Shown here piece by piece: positions 46,070-51,974 of a DNA stretch of 64,000 bases; within the stretch, counting starts at the first letter, position 1; each line of letters starts with the position of its first letter. The stretch comes from Acidobacteriota bacterium (GTDB taxonomy: Bacteria; Acidobacteriota; Thermoanaerobaculia; Gp7-AA8), in assembly GCA_019244185.1 (NCBI GenBank), contig JAFATB010000019.1, forward strand, positions 96,001 to 160,000. Reading direction: 5' to 3'. Both the position numbers and the translations under genes were made by a program. The notes under the pieces are model-generated. The model worked only from the letters and a program-made list of their open reading frames with translations. It was not told where the DNA came from and ran no database searches.

Positions 46070-47647
46070 ATGTTTTCCGACCTGATCGAGAGACTGCGAG
46101 CGCTCTCCCCGCGCGGGAGACGGCCGGACCGCGTCTCGATCCTGCTCCCCTTCCTGATCATCTCCATCGGCCTCGGCGCGCTCGCCTGGCGCTCGTTCGA
46201 TCTGTCGCGCAAGACCGAGCTCAGCGCGAAGACGCTCGCGATTCAATACGCCGGCTACTCGGCCGAGATCGCCGCGCGCCGCGTCGACGCCGCCGTCCGC
46301 ACCGAGATGATCCGCGCCTCCGATGACTGGCGCCAGACCGAGCGCCGCGACGGCGCGCCGACGTTCGCCTCCGTGCGCGAGTGGGTCGCGCAGCGCGGCT
46401 GGATCGTCTCCGCGATCTACGTTCCCGACGACGATCCGGCCAGCTCGGTCTACGTCAGCGAGCTCGCCGCGCACGACCACGCCGTGCGCCTCTCGCGCGA
46501 GATCTTCACCTCCAGCGGCACGATGCGCTACACCTACGATCCACGCCGCCTGCTCCAGGCCGTGCAGGACGCGGTCAAGCAGCAGCCGCTCGTGCGCGTC
46601 GGCGCTGAAGCGGGACTCCCGATCGGCCAGCGCGCCGACCTCACGCTCGTGCTCGATCCGCACGTCGAAGGTCTGCAGCGCGTCGATGACGGCTACCGCT
46701 TCACCGCCGCGCTCGCGCCGCCGCTGCAGGCGTACGGCGTCCGCGCCGCCGTGCGCACCGCGTACGTCGGCGGCCGCGGCTGGGAGAACCAGCGCTTCGT
46801 CTCGCTCAGCGTGAGCATCCTGGCCATCATCCTCACCGGCGCCGGCGTCATGCTCGCGCTGCGCGGCATGAACAAGGAAGCGGAGACGACCAAGCTCCGC
46901 GGCGCGCTCATCGCGAACGTCTCGCACGAGCTGCGCACGCCGCTCTCGATGATCCGCCTCGGCGCGGAGACGCTCAAGCTCGGACGCCTCAAACCGCAGG
47001 AGCGCGCCGAGATCGAGGACCAGATCCTCCGCGAGGTGCTGCTCCTCTCGCACCTCGTCGAGAACGTGCTCGATGTCGCGCGCATGCAGAACCGCAGCAC
47101 GAAGGCGCTGGCCTTCACCGCCGTGCATCCGCGTGACCTCATCCGCGGCCTCGTCGCGACGTACGAGGGCTGGATCCGCAGCAAAGGCTTCACCGTCGCG
47201 CTCGAGCTCGACGAGAGCATCGGTCCGCAGATGTGGGACCGCGACGCCGTGTCGCGCGCGCTGCTCAACCTCATCGACAACGCCATCAAGTATTCGAACG
47301 ACGACAAAGCCATCGACGTCGCGCTGCGCGAGACCGCGGAGCACGTCGTCATCGAGGTGAAGGACCGCGGCATCGGCATCGACGCCAAGGACGCGGCGCG
47401 CATCTTCGATCCGTACTACCGCGCGAAGTTCTCCGACACCATCACGCGCCGCGGCGCCGGACTCGGACTCACGCTCGTGCAGCAGATCGTGCATTCGCAC
47501 GGCGGACGCGTCGAGCTCGAGTCGCAGCCCGGCGCCGGCTCGACCTTCCGCCTGCTCTTCCCGCGCGAGCTCGCGGACGCCGCGGCCGACGACGCGACCG
47601 ACTCGCGCCGCTCGCTCGGCGAAACCCTCGCCCCCGGACTCCCGTAA
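46070..47647 (+). CDS. Membrane sensor histidine kinase
   Basis: Two TMs; ANVSHELRTPL, NLIDNAIKY, DRGIGI, GAGLGL. Confidence 0.93.
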   Translation: MFSDLIERLRALSPRGRRPDRVSILLPFLIISIGLGALAWRSFDLSRKTELSAKTLAIQYAGYSAEIAARRVDAAVRTEMIRASDDWRQTERRDGAPTFASVREWVAQRGWIVSAIYVPDDDPASSVYVSELAAHDHAVRLSREIFTSSGTMRYTYDPRRLLQAVQDAVKQQPLVRVGAEAGLPIGQRADLTLVLDPHVEGLQRVDDGYRFTAALAPPLQAYGVRAAVRTAYVGGRGWENQRFVSLSVSILAIILTGAGVMLALRGMNKEAETTKLRGALIANVSHELRTPLSMIRLGAETLKLGRLKPQERAEIEDQILREVLLLSHLVENVLDVARMQNRSTKALAFTAVHPRDLIRGLVATYEGWIRSKGFTVALELDESIGPQMWDRDAVSRALLNLIDNAIKYSNDDKAIDVALRETAEHVVIEVKDRGIGIDAKDAARIFDPYYRAKFSDTITRRGAGLGLTLVQQIVHSHGGRVELESQPGAGSTFRLLFPRELADAAADDATDSRRSLGETLAPGLP

Positions 47648-47673: not shown

Positions 47674-48390
47674 ATGACGAAGATCCTGATCGTGGAAGAC
47701 GAGGCGGGACTGAGGCAGGGACTGGAGATCAATCTCCGCCACGAGAATTACGAGACGGCCACGGCCGCCGACGGCGAGGAGGCCATCCGCCTCTTCCACG
47801 CTGAGAGCCCCGATCTCATCCTGCTCGACCTCATGCTGCCGAAGAAAAGCGGATTCGAGGTCCTCGACCACATCCGCAAAGTCTCGAAAGTGCCGGTGAT
47901 CCTGCTCACCGCGCGCGGCCAGGAGACCGACAAGGTCCGCGGTCTGCGCGGCGGCGCGGATGACTACGTCACCAAGCCGTTCGGCGTGCAGGAGCTCTTC
48001 GCGCGCATCGACGCGGTCATGCGCCGCAGCGAGGTCGTGACGACGACGGCGCGGTCGATCTGCGAGGACTCGCTGATCCGCCTCGATCCCGCCACGCGCG
48101 AAGCCTCGGCGAACAATCAGAAGCTCAAGCTCTCGCCGAAAGAGTTCGATCTGCTGATGTACCTCTTCAAGAACAAGGAGCGCGTCGTGCCGCGCGACGA
48201 GCTGCTCTCGCGCGTCTGGAACTATCGCGTCGATCTCAACCTCAACAGCCGCACCGTCGACACGCACGTCACGCGTCTGCGCCGCAAGCTGCAGAAGGCG
48301 GTCGGCACCGACGCCGCGGTCATCGTCGCCGTCGCGAAGATCGGCTACCGCTACCTCGGCGAGGCCAGCGGCTCGGCGGTGGCGCGCTGA
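47674..48390 (+). CDS. OmpR-family response regulator
   Basis: ILIVEDE, LLDLMLP, GADDYVTKPF; winged helix SRTVDTHVTRLRRK, GYR. Confidence 0.94.
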   Translation: MTKILIVEDEAGLRQGLEINLRHENYETATAADGEEAIRLFHAESPDLILLDLMLPKKSGFEVLDHIRKVSKVPVILLTARGQETDKVRGLRGGADDYVTKPFGVQELFARIDAVMRRSEVVTTTARSICEDSLIRLDPATREASANNQKLKLSPKEFDLLMYLFKNKERVVPRDELLSRVWNYRVDLNLNSRTVDTHVTRLRRKLQKAVGTDAAVIVAVAKIGYRYLGEASGSAVAR

Positions 48391-48424
48391 TCGCGATGCA
48401 GGACCTGGAGTAGAATCCGCCGCA

Positions 48425-48493
48425 ATGTCTCGGACGACCGTTCACGCGTGCGCTTGTTGTCGGCCCGCCGCGGGTCCGTCCGAGGTTTGTTGA
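48425..48493 (+). CDS. Cys-rich leader peptide of cysK (MSRTTVHACACCRPAAGPSEVC)
   Basis: 22-codon uORF with Cys at 9, 11, 12 and 22; TAGAAT -10 at 48411-48416, 8 nt before the ATG. Confidence 0.8.
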   Translation: MSRTTVHACACCRPAAGPSEVC

Positions 48494-48524
48494 TGGTCGT
48501 TTAAAAACCCAGCGAATCGAGATG

Positions 48525-48559
48525 GACCCGAGCCGTTGCGCTCGGGTCTTTTTGTTTTT
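48525..48559 (+). terminator. Attenuator terminator upstream of cysK
   Basis: GACCCGAGC-cgttgc-GCTCGGGTC followed by TTTTTGTTTTT. Confidence 0.85.
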
Positions 48560-48587
48560 GCGCGAAAGAAAGGAACGGTTTCCCCTC

Positions 48588-49601
48588 ATGAGCGAACGTA
48601 CCGAACGCATTTACGACAACATCACGGACCTCATCGGCAACACGCCGCTCGTGCGCATCCGCAACGTCGTGCCCGAAGGCGCTGCGGAAGTGCTGGCCAA
48701 GCTCGAGTCGTTCAATCCGCTCTCGTCGGTGAAGGATCGCATCGCCATCTCGATGGTGCGCGAGGCGGAGAAAGCGGGCGAGATCGGTCCGGGCTCGACG
48801 ATCATCGAGGCCACGAGCGGCAACACCGGCATCGGTCTCGCGTTCGTCGCCGCCGCGCTCGGCTACCGCTGCGTGCTGGTGCTGCCCGATACGTTCTCGA
48901 TCGAACGCCGCAAGCTGTTGCAGGCGCTCGGCGCGGAGCTGATCCTCACGCCCGGCCCGATGGGCATCAAGGAAGCGCAGCGCGTCGCCGGCGAGTACGC
49001 GGAGAAGACGCCGGGCGCGTGGCTCTCGCGCCAGTTCGACAATCCCGCGAACGTGAAGATCCACCGCGAGACCACCGCGCGCGAGATCCTGCGCGACACC
49101 GGCGGCCGCGTCGACGCCGTCGTCGCAGGAGTCGGCACCGGCGGCACGGTCACCGGCGTCGGTCAGATCCTCAAACAGGAGCTCGGAACGAACGTGCAGA
49201 TCGTCGCCGTCGAGCCGATCGAGTCGCAGGTGCTCAAAGGCGGCACGCACAGCCCGCACAAACTGCAGGGCATCGGCGCCGGCATGATCCCGGCGATCTA
49301 CGACGCGAGCGTCGTAGACCGCGTGGTCGACGTCTCGTCCGATGACGCGTTCAAAACCTCGCGCCGTCTCGCGAAAGAAGAAGGCATCTTCGTCGGCATC
49401 TCCTCCGGCGCCATCGCCTGGGCCGCGTTCCAGGTCGCGAAAGACCTCGGCCCCGGCAAGCGCGTCGTGGTCGTCCTTCCCGACACCGGCGAGCGCTATC
49501 TGTCGACCGCGCTATTCGAATACACGGACCTCGTGAACCAGCCAGCGACGACGCCGCAGATGCTCGCGGAGCGCGCGGGAGCGACGGCGCAGGCACCTTA
49601 G
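48588..49601 (+). CDS. cysK: Cysteine synthase A
   Basis: IGNTPLV, KLESFNPLSSVKDRIA (PLP Lys), EATSGNTG, GVGTGGT, HKLQGIG, PDTGERYLST. Confidence 0.95.
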   Translation: MSERTERIYDNITDLIGNTPLVRIRNVVPEGAAEVLAKLESFNPLSSVKDRIAISMVREAEKAGEIGPGSTIIEATSGNTGIGLAFVAAALGYRCVLVLPDTFSIERRKLLQALGAELILTPGPMGIKEAQRVAGEYAEKTPGAWLSRQFDNPANVKIHRETTAREILRDTGGRVDAVVAGVGTGGTVTGVGQILKQELGTNVQIVAVEPIESQVLKGGTHSPHKLQGIGAGMIPAIYDASVVDRVVDVSSDDAFKTSRRLAKEEGIFVGISSGAIAWAAFQVAKDLGPGKRVVVVLPDTGERYLSTALFEYTDLVNQPATTPQMLAERAGATAQAP

Positions 49602-49611
49602 AAGGAAAAGC

Positions 49612-49721
49612 GAATTTAGAACGCAGAACGCAGAACGCTGAATGAAGAAATGGGAACCGGCGCGACGCGCGCCGGGCGGGGGCTTCTCAATTCTTCATTC
49701 TGCATTCTGCGTTCTGCATTC
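49612..49721. repeat. Heptamer-built palindromic intergenic element, copy 3
   Basis: (GAACGCA)n..GAATGAAGAA ... CTTCTCAATTCTTCATTCTGCATTCTGCGTTC. Confidence 0.8.
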
Positions 49722-49761
49722 CGGCCCGGCACAAAGCACGTTCCCGCCTATCATTCGCGTC

Positions 49762-50373
49762 GTGGACACCCGCGCCGGTTCCGTCGCTTTCCTGGCCGCC
49801 GCCCTCCACCTCCTCGCCGCTCTCTCCCTCCTCCTTCTCCTCCAACCCGCCCTTCCCGGCGCGGCGTATCCGGCGCGCATCGCCTATCTCGAAACGCACC
49901 GCGCCGCGTGGACGCTCGGCTGGCTCACGTGGCAGCTCGCGGCGATGTCGCTCCTCGCGCTCATGGCCGTGCTCGCGTTGCGGTTTCGCGGCACGGTTGC
50001 GGTCACCGCGATGTGCATCGCGGCGGCGGCGTTCTCGATCGACTTCGCGTCGGAGTCGCGTTACATGGGAGTTCTGCCGGAGCTGCGCGGCGACGCGTTC
50101 GCGGCGCTCGATCGCGAGCTCGACGTGCTGATCGGCTTCGCCGCGAACGGGCTGTACACGATCGCGCTGGCGTTGCTCGTCGGTGCGGGCTGGCGCGCGT
50201 TGCCGAGCGCGGCGCGCATCCTGGCGGTGCCGGTCGTCGCGAGTGGACTCGCGCTCGCGGCCGCGTCGCTCGCACATGACGCGCGCGCGGAGACGATCAG
50301 CTCCGCGGTGCTGTTTCCGCTGCTCGTTTTGTGGATGATCGTGGTGGGATTGTGGCTGCGAAGAAACGCGTGA
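49762..50373 (+). CDS. Hypothetical multi-TM membrane protein
   Basis: About 6 hydrophobic helices; TATCAT 7 nt before the GTG. Confidence 0.7.
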   Translation: MDTRAGSVAFLAAALHLLAALSLLLLLQPALPGAAYPARIAYLETHRAAWTLGWLTWQLAAMSLLALMAVLALRFRGTVAVTAMCIAAAAFSIDFASESRYMGVLPELRGDAFAALDRELDVLIGFAANGLYTIALALLVGAGWRALPSAARILAVPVVASGLALAAASLAHDARAETISSAVLFPLLVLWMIVVGLWLRRNA

Positions 50374-51152
50374 TCGTCCTCGGCGCGCGCGGCGTGTTCG
50401 GCTCGCTGCTCGCCTCTGAGTTGCAGCGCGACTACGACGTCGTGCCGCTCACGCGCGGCATGGCGTTCGATCCGCGCGGCGCGTTCGCCGTCGCCTGCGC
50501 GGCCGGTCCGTTCCAGCAACTCGATCGCGGCCTCGTGCGCACGACCGTCGATGCCGGCGCGCACTGGCTCGACATCGCAGACGACGAGATGTGGTTCTTC
50601 GATCTCATCGACGATCGCGCGCTCGACGCGCGTGCACGCGAGCGCGGCGTCGCCGTGATCCCCGGACTCTCGACTCTACCCGCGCTCTCCGGCGCGCTCG
50701 TGCGGCGGCTCGGCGCGCCGCCGCACGTCACGCTCACGCTCTTCATCGGCAACAACAACCGCAAAGGCGTCGCCGCGATCGCGAGCGCGGCGCAGTCGGG
50801 CAACGGTCCGCTGCGCACGCCCGATCGCGAGCTGCTGCGCCGCGAGCTCGGCATCGACGCGCAGGCGTTCGTGAAGTTCGAAATCCCCGTCGCCGCGCCG
50901 CTGCTGCGTTTCCTCGGACGCGCGCCGCGTCTCGCCGCCGCGATCGCGAAGCCGTTCCGCTTCGGTACACGCGGCGGCTACGTCGAAGCGCGCGCGGGCA
51001 ATCGCGTCGAACGCATTCGCGGCGGCGATCAACGGCTCGCGATTCTGCCGCTCGTCTTCGCCCTGGCGCGGCTCGACGACGTCCGCGGCTGCCATGCGCC
51101 GAGCGTCTTCGATGCCGAGGAGCTACTGCGATTCGTGGAGGCACGCGCGTGA
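50352..51152 (+). CDS. Saccharopine dehydrogenase-like NAD(P)-binding protein
   Basis: VIVLGARGVFG, AAGPF, HWLDIAD, PGLSTLPALS. Confidence 0.75.
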   Translation: MAAKKRVIVLGARGVFGSLLASELQRDYDVVPLTRGMAFDPRGAFAVACAAGPFQQLDRGLVRTTVDAGAHWLDIADDEMWFFDLIDDRALDARARERGVAVIPGLSTLPALSGALVRRLGAPPHVTLTLFIGNNNRKGVAAIASAAQSGNGPLRTPDRELLRRELGIDAQAFVKFEIPVAAPLLRFLGRAPRLAAAIAKPFRFGTRGGYVEARAGNRVERIRGGDQRLAILPLVFALARLDDVRGCHAPSVFDAEELLRFVEARA

Positions 51153-51568
51153 AGCGAAGGAGACTGCATCGCATCGTGTTCGCGCTTGCGGGCGTGTACA
51201 ACCTCGCGTGGGGCGCGTACTCCGCGCTCGATCCGCAGTGGCTCTTCCGCTTCGCCGGCATGCCGCTGCAGAACCATCCCGAGATCTTCGCGTGTCTCGG
51301 CATGGTCGTCGGCGTGTACGGCTTGCTCTATCTCGACGTCGCGCGCGATCCGGAGCGCGGCGCGCGCATCGCCGCCGTCGGATTGCTGGGCAAAGTCCTC
51401 GGACCGATCGGACTCGCGCGGCTCATCGCCACCGGCGTGTGGCCGCTGAAGAGCATCGTCCTCTGCGTCACGAACGACTTCGTTTGGTGGATCCCGTTCG
51501 CGCTGTACCTGTGGGACGTCAGTCAGTTCGCGGCCGCATCCCGCCGTACGGGCCGGGACGCAGTTTGA
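51149..51568 (+). CDS. Hypothetical 4-TM membrane protein
   Basis: AGVYNLAWG, CLGMVVGVYG, GLLGKVLGPIG, NDFVWWIPF; GTGA overlap. Confidence 0.75.
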   Translation: MKRRRLHRIVFALAGVYNLAWGAYSALDPQWLFRFAGMPLQNHPEIFACLGMVVGVYGLLYLDVARDPERGARIAAVGLLGKVLGPIGLARLIATGVWPLKSIVLCVTNDFVWWIPFALYLWDVSQFAAASRRTGRDAV

Positions 51569-51974
51569 ACTTCTCGAACTTCGCGCGCTGCTCCGGCGTC
51601 AGCACTGCCGCGATCTCCTCGTTCGTCGCGTGGATCTCCGCGGTCACGCGCGGCCGCATCGCGGCGAGCTCGGATTCCATGCGATTCACGTGACGCTCGA
51701 TGATCTGCTGGATGCGCGCGTGCTGCTCGCTGGTGAGGTCGAGGCGGCGATCGAGCCGGCGCAGCATCATGTGCGTTGCGAAGGGCGGCACGTGCATGCC
51801 GTGATGGAAGATCACGTAGCGGTCGGCGAAGAAGCCGACCACCAGGCCGGAGCCGAAGGCGAGCACCACCACGATCGCGGCGATGAGCGTCGTGACGAGT
51901 GCGGCCGACGACGAGCGCGGCGGAAGCTGCGGCGGAAGCTGGGACGGAACAGGGAGCGGATCAGTCGCCGACAC
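51519..51974 (-). CDS. Membrane-anchored Spy/CpxP-like (LTxxQ) protein
   Basis: TM followed by LDLTSEQ...VLTPEQRAKF. Confidence 0.75.
   Translation of the reverse strand: MSATDPLPVPSQLPPQLPPRSSSAALVTTLIAAIVVVLAFGSGLVVGFFADRYVIFHHGMHVPPFATHMMLRRLDRRLDLTSEQHARIQQIIERHVNRMESELAAMRPRVTAEIHATNEEIAAVLTPEQRAKFEKFKLRPGPYGGMRPRTD

Follow-up and report, generated by a model that had tools for sequence, protein, structure and literature searches.

Results

Organization of the cysK leader

The stretch of DNA analysed here, referred to as the window, comprises 64,000 nucleotides (nt) of contig JAFATB010000019.1 from an Acidobacteriota bacterium (assembly GCA_019244185.1), and all coordinates are given in the numbering of the window. 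Our subject is a short leader on the + strand, lying between a response regulator gene and cysK, in which a Cys-rich upstream open reading frame (uORF), alternative RNA pairings and an intrinsic terminator are brought together, and which we describe as a putative Cys-sensing attenuator. The gene that it would regulate, cysK (48588-49601, + strand), codes for an O-acetylserine sulfhydrylase A of 337 aa, with a PALP domain (260.6 bits) and a match to the NCBIfam cysK equivalog TIGR01139 at 420.5 bits against a cut-off of 350.95. An alternative start codon of cysK, ATG 48522, would place the terminator inside the gene; it was rejected because orthologues align only from residue 7 of the protein starting at 48588.

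All parts of the leader lie on the + strand. It opens with a -10 hexamer, TAGAAT (48411-48416), and the 8 bases at 48417-48424 separate this hexamer from the ATG (48425) of a leader open reading frame of 22 codons, MSRTTVHACACCRPAAGPSEVC, which extends over 48425-48493 and ends with the stop codon TGA at 48491-48493. Four of these codons specify Cys. Codons 9, 11 and 12 form the regulatory cluster (48449-48460), composed of TGC (48449-51), GCT and the consecutive TGT TGT (48455-60), and codon 22 is a further TGT (48488-90). From the spacing to the -10 hexamer, which would act as promoter element, transcription is expected to start at 48423-48425, giving a 5′ untranslated region of only 0-2 nt.

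Four RNA segments were delineated from folds and partner tests. Segment 1 (48429-48439) coincides with codons 2-5 of the leader frame and is the partner of segment 2 in the fold of the free RNA. Segment 2 (48471-48484, CGGGTCCGTCCGAG) is shared as a partner by segments 1 and 3. Segment 3 (48514-48530) consists of the outer 5′ arm of the terminator together with its 5′ flank, and pairs either with segment 2, forming the antiterminator, or with segment 4. The intrinsic terminator (48524-48559), located by a consensus scan, is made of a hairpin at 48524-48549 (segments 3:4) with 10 pairs, 7 of them G-C, followed by TTTTGTTTTT, with its U-tract at 48550-48559.

Free RNA covering 48423-48560 folds into the 1:2 helix (48429-48439 with 48473-48484) and the terminator hairpin, with an energy of -55.5 kcal/mol (z = -2.77; 2/200 shuffles fold as well). 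When a ribosome is placed as a mask at the first Cys codon, 48472-48480 pairs instead with 48521-48529, that is, segment 2 with segment 3. An earlier note on this DNA, made from the sequence alone, had pointed to the hexamer 8 nt before the ATG, to a 22-codon uORF without a Shine-Dalgarno sequence and with Cys at codons 9, 11 and 12, and to the pairings 1:2, 2:3 and 3:4, the last with a U-tract. Direct reading, folding and the consensus scan agree with it on each of these elements, and add the fourth Cys codon that it had not listed.

Conservation and distribution of the leader

A protein search for cysK in 40 relatives yielded 23 orthologous loci in the genus, the window's own included. The same layout, with TANNNT, 7-10 nt, ATG, a Cys-rich short frame and a GGACCCG-type terminator, was found in 16/23 of the upstream regions of these genes, and a covariance model, R1, was built from those 16 regions. 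In the window's own genome R1 has a single site, which is this leader. It matches 23/35 genomes of the genus, with one site each, and 48/124 genomes of the family, distributed over 14/40 genera. No match was obtained in 115 genomes from 16 other families of the class, with 13/35 family members matching in the same draw. Two unpublished genomes that carry the leader, G002 and G024, are part of these counts, which become 21/33 and 46/122 without them; no claim made here rests on G002 or G024 alone, and G030 enters only the tally of 23 cysK loci. A motif scan over one genome per species returned 110 stretches, 80 of which were examined. Thirteen of the 80 match R1, and their records are titled Thermoanaerobaculia (10) or Acidobacteriota/Acidobacteria (3), in agreement with the phylum given in the earlier note; the remaining 67 are chance matches in other G+C-rich taxa.

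The association with cysK is strict, since a cysK orthologue is the next gene after the leader in 45/45 loci that hold downstream sequence. As for chance, a whole-genome scan recovered 513 short open reading frames (8-44 codons) starting 5-11 nt after a TANNNT hexamer. Two Cys within three codons are present in 18 of them, and only one of these 18, this very leader, is followed by a terminator within 140 nt. The Cys leader element is not a product of chance.

In 46/48 R1 matches, a frame containing two or more Cys begins with a start codon 5-11 nt downstream of the hexamer. In a further one, L073, the start codon stands at 12 nt, bringing the uORF to 47/48 matches, and in L075 the frame is lost. 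The analyses that follow concern 46 leaders, after exclusion of L075, which has no uORF, and of L052, which is cut by a contig end. Three loci (L003, L020 and L075) retain a good -10 that is followed after only about 7-40 nt by the conserved terminator hairpin, and no Cys uORF intervenes; these look like deletion derivatives of the leader.

The putative promoter is conserved as well. TANNNT occurs at the same place in 44/46 aligned leaders, as TAGAAT in 20, TACAAT in 8, TAGCGT in 6 and other forms in the rest. From this -10 to the start codon there are 7-10 nt in 41/46 leaders, leaving an untranslated region of about 0-3 nt and thus no room for a Shine-Dalgarno sequence. The usual distance from a -10 to the transcription start is 6-9 nt. 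The leader message would accordingly begin at or almost at its start codon, which makes it a predicted leaderless, or nearly leaderless, message. A TTGACN hexamer with at least 5/6 matches stands 16-17 nt upstream of the -10 in 12/48 loci. The strengths of the two hexamers run inversely: these 12 loci mostly carry weaker -10 sequences of the TAGCGT/TAGGGT/TAGCTT type, and the loci with TAGAAT or TACAAT, the window included, are without a recognisable -35. Such inverse compensation is the behaviour of real promoters.

RNA runs were also searched. Among five runs, each containing at most 0.04 of the sampled words, four yielded short contig pieces, mostly over conserved codons of cysK, and one identical piece of 40 nt, from a soil RNA library, covers 48445-48484. 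Since contigs do not reveal the ends of a transcript and libraries of this kind may contain DNA, no conclusion was drawn from these pieces.

Leader peptides and Cys codons

The predicted leader peptides of the family are 12-29 residues long, contain 2-6 Cys (median 3) and vary in their C-terminal tails; variation in length and tail is usual among leader peptides. Cys accounts for 148/925 leader residues (16.0%), compared with 0.75% in the long open reading frames of this genome, an enrichment of approximately 21-fold. Both Cys codons are used, and the rarer one, TGT, is preferred: it makes up 80/135 cluster codons (59%) against 16% genome-wide. Clusters of Cys codons are found in all 46 leaders, the window having its two consecutive TGT codons at 48455-48460. 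The codons conserved outside the clusters coincide with the pairing segments, codons 2-5 with segment 1 and those of the peptide motif GPFE with segment 2.

Competing RNA pairings across the family

Two alignments were used, a MAFFT alignment unfitted to structure (A1) and a model-fitted alignment of the 48 matches (A3), which is biased towards structure. From the MAFFT alignment, RNAalifold retrieved no more than the terminator and one weak local helix. Because the variable middle region misaligns, the helices were defined by hand and by the covariance model. On A1, helices 1:2 and 3:4 together are 81% paired, with 5 pairs changed on both sides, and their covariation score of 0.171 compares with at most 0.086 in slid controls and is reached by 2/500 shuffles. 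Helix 1:2 taken separately is 71% paired on A1 and has both-side changes at 4 of its 11 pairs. On the fitted A3 the two helices reach 83% pairing and have both-side changes at 14 pairs. In the terminator, the outer seven pairs of the stem are present in all cells (100%) among 47 leaders, and both-side changes are found at three of these pairs.

For the antiterminator helix 2:3, the fitted alignment A3 gives 73.9% paired cells, with 22 double-change cells against 11.2 expected. Complementarity was further examined for each leader on its own sequence. In 45/46 leaders no upstream window pairs better with segment 3 (the 5′ arm of the terminator and its flank) than segment 2 does; the median duplex energy is -16.5 kcal/mol, compared with -8.1 for the best other window. 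When segments were paired with their own partner or with a foreign one from another leader, own partners were better for 2:3 (-17.06 against -15.25 kcal/mol), for 1:2 (-13.3 against -11.3 kcal/mol) and for 3:4, with 0/2000 permutations as good in each case. The negative controls 1:3 (1690/2000) and 2:4 (639/2000) gave no effect; relatedness inflates these permutation tests, and the control pairs share the same relatedness. The support for 2:3 therefore comes from its conserved complementarity and from the own-versus-foreign comparison, both of which are independent of alignment columns.

Ribosome position and folding

Segment coordinates in the 46 leaders were taken from the columns of the covariance model. 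In 44/46 leaders, the GGTC core of segment 2 follows the last Cys codon of the cluster at a distance of 9-18 nt (15 nt in the window), and the stop codon lies between 3 nt before and 24 nt after this core (18 nt after it in the window). With this spacing, a ribosome whose A site is occupied by a Cys codon would leave segment 2 just outside its leading edge, and one that has advanced beyond the Cys codons would cover it.

Masked folding of the complete leader at equilibrium was rejected as a test of switching, E. coli trpL and hisL failing it likewise. It was replaced by folding a transcript cut just before segment 4 and taking the probability that segment 2 holds the 5′ arm of the terminator, an equilibrium stand-in for what would be a kinetic process. 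Over the 46 leaders, the median probability is 0.80 with the ribosome at the first Cys codon, 0.57 at the last Cys codon and 0.00 at the stop codon. The window gives 0.99, 0.99 and 0.00 for these three positions and 0.92 with no ribosome. A value of at least 0.5 with a stalled ribosome is reached by 40/46 leaders and one of at most 0.1 with the ribosome at the stop codon by 35/46, both together by 29/46. In E. coli trpL and hisL, treated with the same script, the terminator has 0.98-1.00 at equilibrium, and its 5′ arm is held with 0.38-0.74 when the ribosome is stalled and 0.07-0.30 otherwise. In this test the family thus seems to behave like the proven attenuators, except for a relatively weak 1:2 helix, and coverage of segment 2, more than that of segment 1, appears to be what decides.

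Genes and repeats around cysK

Upstream of the leader lie genes for a histidine kinase (46070-47647) and an OmpR/PhoB-type response regulator (47674-48390). A minus-strand open reading frame that runs across the leader (48320-48610) is without a family match and was taken as spurious. Downstream of cysK, the frame at 49650-50279 resembles an out-of-frame translation, with weak and partial matches in relatives only, and was likewise set aside. The approximately 2 kb 3′ of cysK (49642-51693) contain long open frames on both strands, none with a Pfam or NCBIfam match; the first family match beyond is a weak LTXXQ/Metal_resist on the minus strand (51519-51974).

Directly 3′ of the cysK stop codon there are inverted arrays of heptamers, (AGAACGC) x3.6 at 49618-49642 and (ATTCTGC) x4.6 at 49690-49721. 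They flank a G+C-rich palindrome, and the whole of 49618-49721 folds as one long hairpin of -67.2 kcal/mol (z = -6.2; 0/200 shuffles as good) without a U-tract. This hairpin could be an element of the repetitive extragenic palindrome (REP) type or one that stabilises mRNA. Comparable inverted arrays of 7-9-base repeats occur near the cysK upstream region in two relatives: in L004 they flank the whole Cys leader, and in L009 they stand in place of the missing leader. Such arrays could represent a mobile or recombinogenic class of repeats in the genus.

Discussion

A proposed mechanism for the Cys leader

Judging from its sequence and conservation, we consider it probable that the leader is a ribosome-mediated transcription attenuator, which senses Cys-tRNA and controls cysK. 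Direct observations cover the sequence elements and their conservation, the association with cysK, the spacing between Cys codons and segment 2, and the complementarities that compete with one another. From them we infer the start site, the translation of the uORF, the stalling of the ribosome and the effect on termination, which together make up the following scheme. Transcription would start at, or 1-2 nt before, the AUG of the 22-codon leader frame. When Cys-tRNA is plentiful, the first ribosome would pass the Cys codons onto segment 2 and then reach the stop codon 18 nt further on. By the time RNA polymerase synthesises segments 3 and 4, segment 2 would thus be hidden under the ribosome; the 3:4 hairpin, followed by its U-tract, would form, and transcription would terminate before cysK. 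When Cys-tRNA is scarce, the ribosome would stall at a Cys codon that has entered its A site. Segment 2 lies 15-24 nt downstream, immediately beyond the front edge of this ribosome; being free, it would capture the 5′ arm of the terminator as this arm emerges, the terminator would come too late, and polymerase would read through into cysK. If the leader is not translated at all, 1:2 and 3:4 would both form, and termination would be the outcome.

This scheme follows the logic of the trp and his operons, as the earlier note had suggested, and that part of its proposal has held: uORF, terminator and the 1:2, 2:3 and 3:4 alternatives are all conserved, and trpL and hisL behave alike in the folds. 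The Cys codons that it expected to see conserved upstream of cysK in relatives are indeed there, the uORFs of 47/48 matches having 2-6 of them. Its account of the switching state needs adjustment. It had a ribosome stalled at the Cys codons mask segment 1 and thereby free segment 2; segment 2 would indeed be left free, but only the 3′ half of segment 1 would be covered, and according to the folds the state that discriminates is the one in which a ribosome past the Cys codons masks segment 2.

Several observations weigh against the attenuator interpretation. The -35 region in the window is poor (CTGATC, 3/6 matches, with an 18-nt spacer), which is why the consensus scan reported no full sigma-70 promoter upstream of the leader frame. 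The genomes are related, so that counts across them overstate independence. Covarying stems, another check put forward in the earlier note, are seen for 1:2 with 3:4; column by column, the signal for 2:3 is equivocal: on A1 this helix is 87.5% paired, but 97/500 shuffles reach its observed covariation score, and its score of 0.116 on A3 is exceeded by that of one slid control (0.144). In folds of the full-length leader at equilibrium the terminator is favoured whatever is masked, with a median of 0.99 and values of about 0.5 or below in 3/46 leaders; since the terminator always wins at equilibrium, the switch must be kinetic. Even in the cut transcript 2:3 still forms when no ribosome is present (median 0.64), and 1:2 is therefore weaker at equilibrium than in classical models. 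Moreover, a ribosome at the stop codon fails to prevent 2:3 in 9/46 leaders, and by the cut-transcript test 17/46 leaders are not switch-like.

Alternative explanations

The alternative that survives best, and which we still regard as quite unlikely, keeps the uORF as a Cys sensor that acts by stalling and places the output in the translation of cysK, in Rho or in mRNA stability, the hairpin being a mere structural partner. It has in its favour that the equilibrium folds never abolish the terminator and that, going by the accessible part of the report (10.1101/834739), the only Cys leader tested by experiment acts on translation. What argues for termination as the output is that every leader ends in a G+C-rich hairpin directly followed by a U-tract, with the fully paired outer stem described above. 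In addition, the Shine-Dalgarno region of cysK (48564-48576) lies beyond the U-tract and is largely unpaired in the centroid of 48423-48615, a fold which, for the window sequence only, is no better than those of shuffles (z = -0.99).

The small frame could alternatively code for a functional Cys-rich micropeptide, for instance a metal-binding or redox peptide, with the hairpin ending the peptide's own transcript or insulating cysK from it. We hold this to be very improbable. A CxCC...GPFE motif is conserved at the peptide level in many members, as a functional peptide would predict; the conserved parts outside the Cys codons, however, are precisely the pairing segments, and they are conserved at all three codon positions, as would be expected of RNA. 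In L059 segment 2 is even read in a different frame. The number of Cys and the length of the peptide change as widely as given above, the tails vary freely, and the element is tied to cysK.

Comparably improbable is a switch made of RNA only, such as a riboswitch or a leader that binds a protein or tRNA, in which the open frame would be incidental. Conserved helices together with a terminator are typical of riboswitch expression platforms, but such a switch gives no reason why 47/48 matches should keep the frame, a start codon placed 7-10 nt after the -10, and Cys codons that differ by synonymous TGT/TGC changes. The other two frames average 0.59 Cys, and 26/92 of them contain stop codons. Apart from the uORF and segments 1-4, the leader has no conserved unpaired stretch that could serve as a ligand pocket. 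The leader also has no match to an Rfam family; at permissive thresholds its best hit is Leu_leader, with 15.5 bits against a gathering score of 50 (E = 6.3).

It is scarcely credible that the hairpin is simply the terminator of the histidine kinase/response regulator operon, with a Cys-rich frame arising by chance, for although the response regulator gene ends at 48390 and such a gene lies upstream in 41/48 loci, the other 7/48 have a different upstream gene and still carry the whole leader before cysK, a promoter-like -10 stands between the regulator's stop codon and the hairpin, and Cys is enriched to the extent reported above.

Comparison with known systems

The comparisons with published leaders made here draw on the accessible parts of the cited sources. 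The attenuator proposed for cysK shares its plan with the classical attenuators of enterobacterial amino-acid operons (trpL, hisL and others). As in these, there is a short uORF rich in codons for the amino acid of the pathway, and there are 1:2, 2:3 and 3:4 alternatives with an intrinsic terminator before the first structural gene. It differs in sensing Cys, in having its start codon at or next to the 5′ end rather than behind a Shine-Dalgarno sequence, and in having its regulatory codons between segments 1 and 2, not inside segment 1; there is no sequence similarity.

In mycobacteria, leaderless short open reading frames with polycysteine tracts unmask a ribosome-binding site (Canestrari et al., bioRxiv 10.1101/834739), and the mechanism at other mycobacterial loci was left open by the authors of that study. 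Clustered Cys codons before genes of cysteine metabolism are common to both systems, and the present leader would also share the leaderless start and the pausing ribosome as the sensor. The present leader, in contrast, has a canonical intrinsic terminator as its conserved output, with the Shine-Dalgarno region of cysK outside it, belongs to a different phylum and occurs at a single locus per genome. In Actinobacteria, Cys-rich candidate leader peptides were described before cys/cbs operons (Seliverstov et al. 2005, PMC1262725). These too are short frames with runs of Cys codons before cysteine genes; no conserved terminator hairpins were found there and Rho-dependent termination was proposed, whereas the leader described here has an explicit and conserved terminator and antiterminator.

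Attenuators of the terminator type that respond to Cys have been predicted for cysS. The motif uORFC-8-2, found before this gene in Rhodobacterales, has tandem Cys codons (UGC, UGU), a stem and a U run (Brewer et al. 2021, PMC8632094). Like our leader it is a predicted ribosome-mediated attenuator in which a uORF with Cys codons precedes a stem and a U run. Unlike it, uORFC-8-2 controls cysteinyl-tRNA synthetase in alpha-proteobacteria, has its Cys codons inside the first stem, is not described as leaderless in the accessible text and belongs to an unrelated sequence family. In Deinococcus deserti, leaderless leader peptides have been mapped, including a 10-residue peptide with two Cys before cysS, and were predicted to attenuate transcription of tRNA synthetase and amino-acid genes (de Groot et al. 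2014, PMC4007540). There the 5′ ends are mapped and the target is cysS; here they are inferred, the target is cysK and the phylum is different. In having leaders for several amino acids D. deserti resembles the present genome, where we also note Thr (thrS) and Tyr (chorismate mutase/DAHP synthase) candidates.

Outside these cases, the accessible part of Korolev et al. (2016) contains nothing on cysteine, and that of PMC13236596 cites only mycobacterial work on Cys leaders. In the accessible literature, supplements aside, we found no description of a Cys leader before cysK, nor of any Cys leader in Acidobacteriota. The novelty that the earlier note had supposed for a terminator-based Cys attenuator therefore stands for this phylum and for cysK, and is reduced by the predictions for cysS (PMC8632094, PMC4007540). 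The Cys leader represents a new sequence family within an established class of regulators.

Candidate sister leaders and wider meaning

Two further candidate leaders of similar build are found in the same genome outside the window, both on G000:C21. The first (L191; + strand, start 58534) is a near-leaderless frame of 16 codons, MNHSALRYAYYYGYYS, with 6 Tyr, followed by a terminator and lying directly upstream of genes for chorismate mutase (CM_2) and DAHP synthase; it is a candidate Tyr-sensing attenuator of aromatic amino-acid synthesis. The second (L192; - strand, start 107904) is a near-leaderless frame of 20 codons, MTRTTTTAQTRTGRTPAPCR, with 8 Thr, also followed by a terminator, upstream of a threonyl-tRNA synthetase gene (TGS, tRNA_SAD and class II core domains), and is a candidate Thr-sensing attenuator of thrS.

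Perhaps Acidobacteriota of the Thermoanaerobaculia type run a small regulon of leaderless leader peptides operated by ribosomes, with Cys for cysK, Thr for thrS and Tyr for chorismate mutase-DAHP synthase, in which the Cys member would be a single-shot sensor; this is a speculative extension, and at present we would rather bet against it than on it. Predicted attenuators in Acidobacteria are almost all without an assigned function (Naville and Gautheret 2010, PMC2965389, in its accessible part), and if the regulon exists it would be the first functional assignment for attenuators in the phylum. The single-shot idea comes from the position of segment 1: because it starts at codon 2 of a leaderless message, a formed 1:2 helix would bury the 5′-terminal AUG. 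If so, only a ribosome that loads within the first 50 nt or so of transcription could report the level of Cys-tRNA.

The regulation of cysteine synthesis is known mainly through proteins of the CysB/CymR type, T-boxes and S-adenosylmethionine (SAM) riboswitches. To our knowledge, control by a ribosome that senses Cys has been shown experimentally only in mycobacteria, where it acts on translation. The family described here would add a clean and comparatively well-supported terminator/antiterminator design tuned to cysteine, placed before the gene of cysteine synthase itself. The general view of how attenuation works is unchanged by it, and a specialist would not be surprised. Its value lies in the host, a poorly studied and mostly uncultured phylum, and in its form, since the leader is a compact, testable part of approximately 140 nt. 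In 48 genomes it also provides an annotation for a uORF whose small size keeps it from being called. Taken with the Thr and Tyr candidates, it may indicate that this lineage makes general use of attenuation by leaderless leader peptides.

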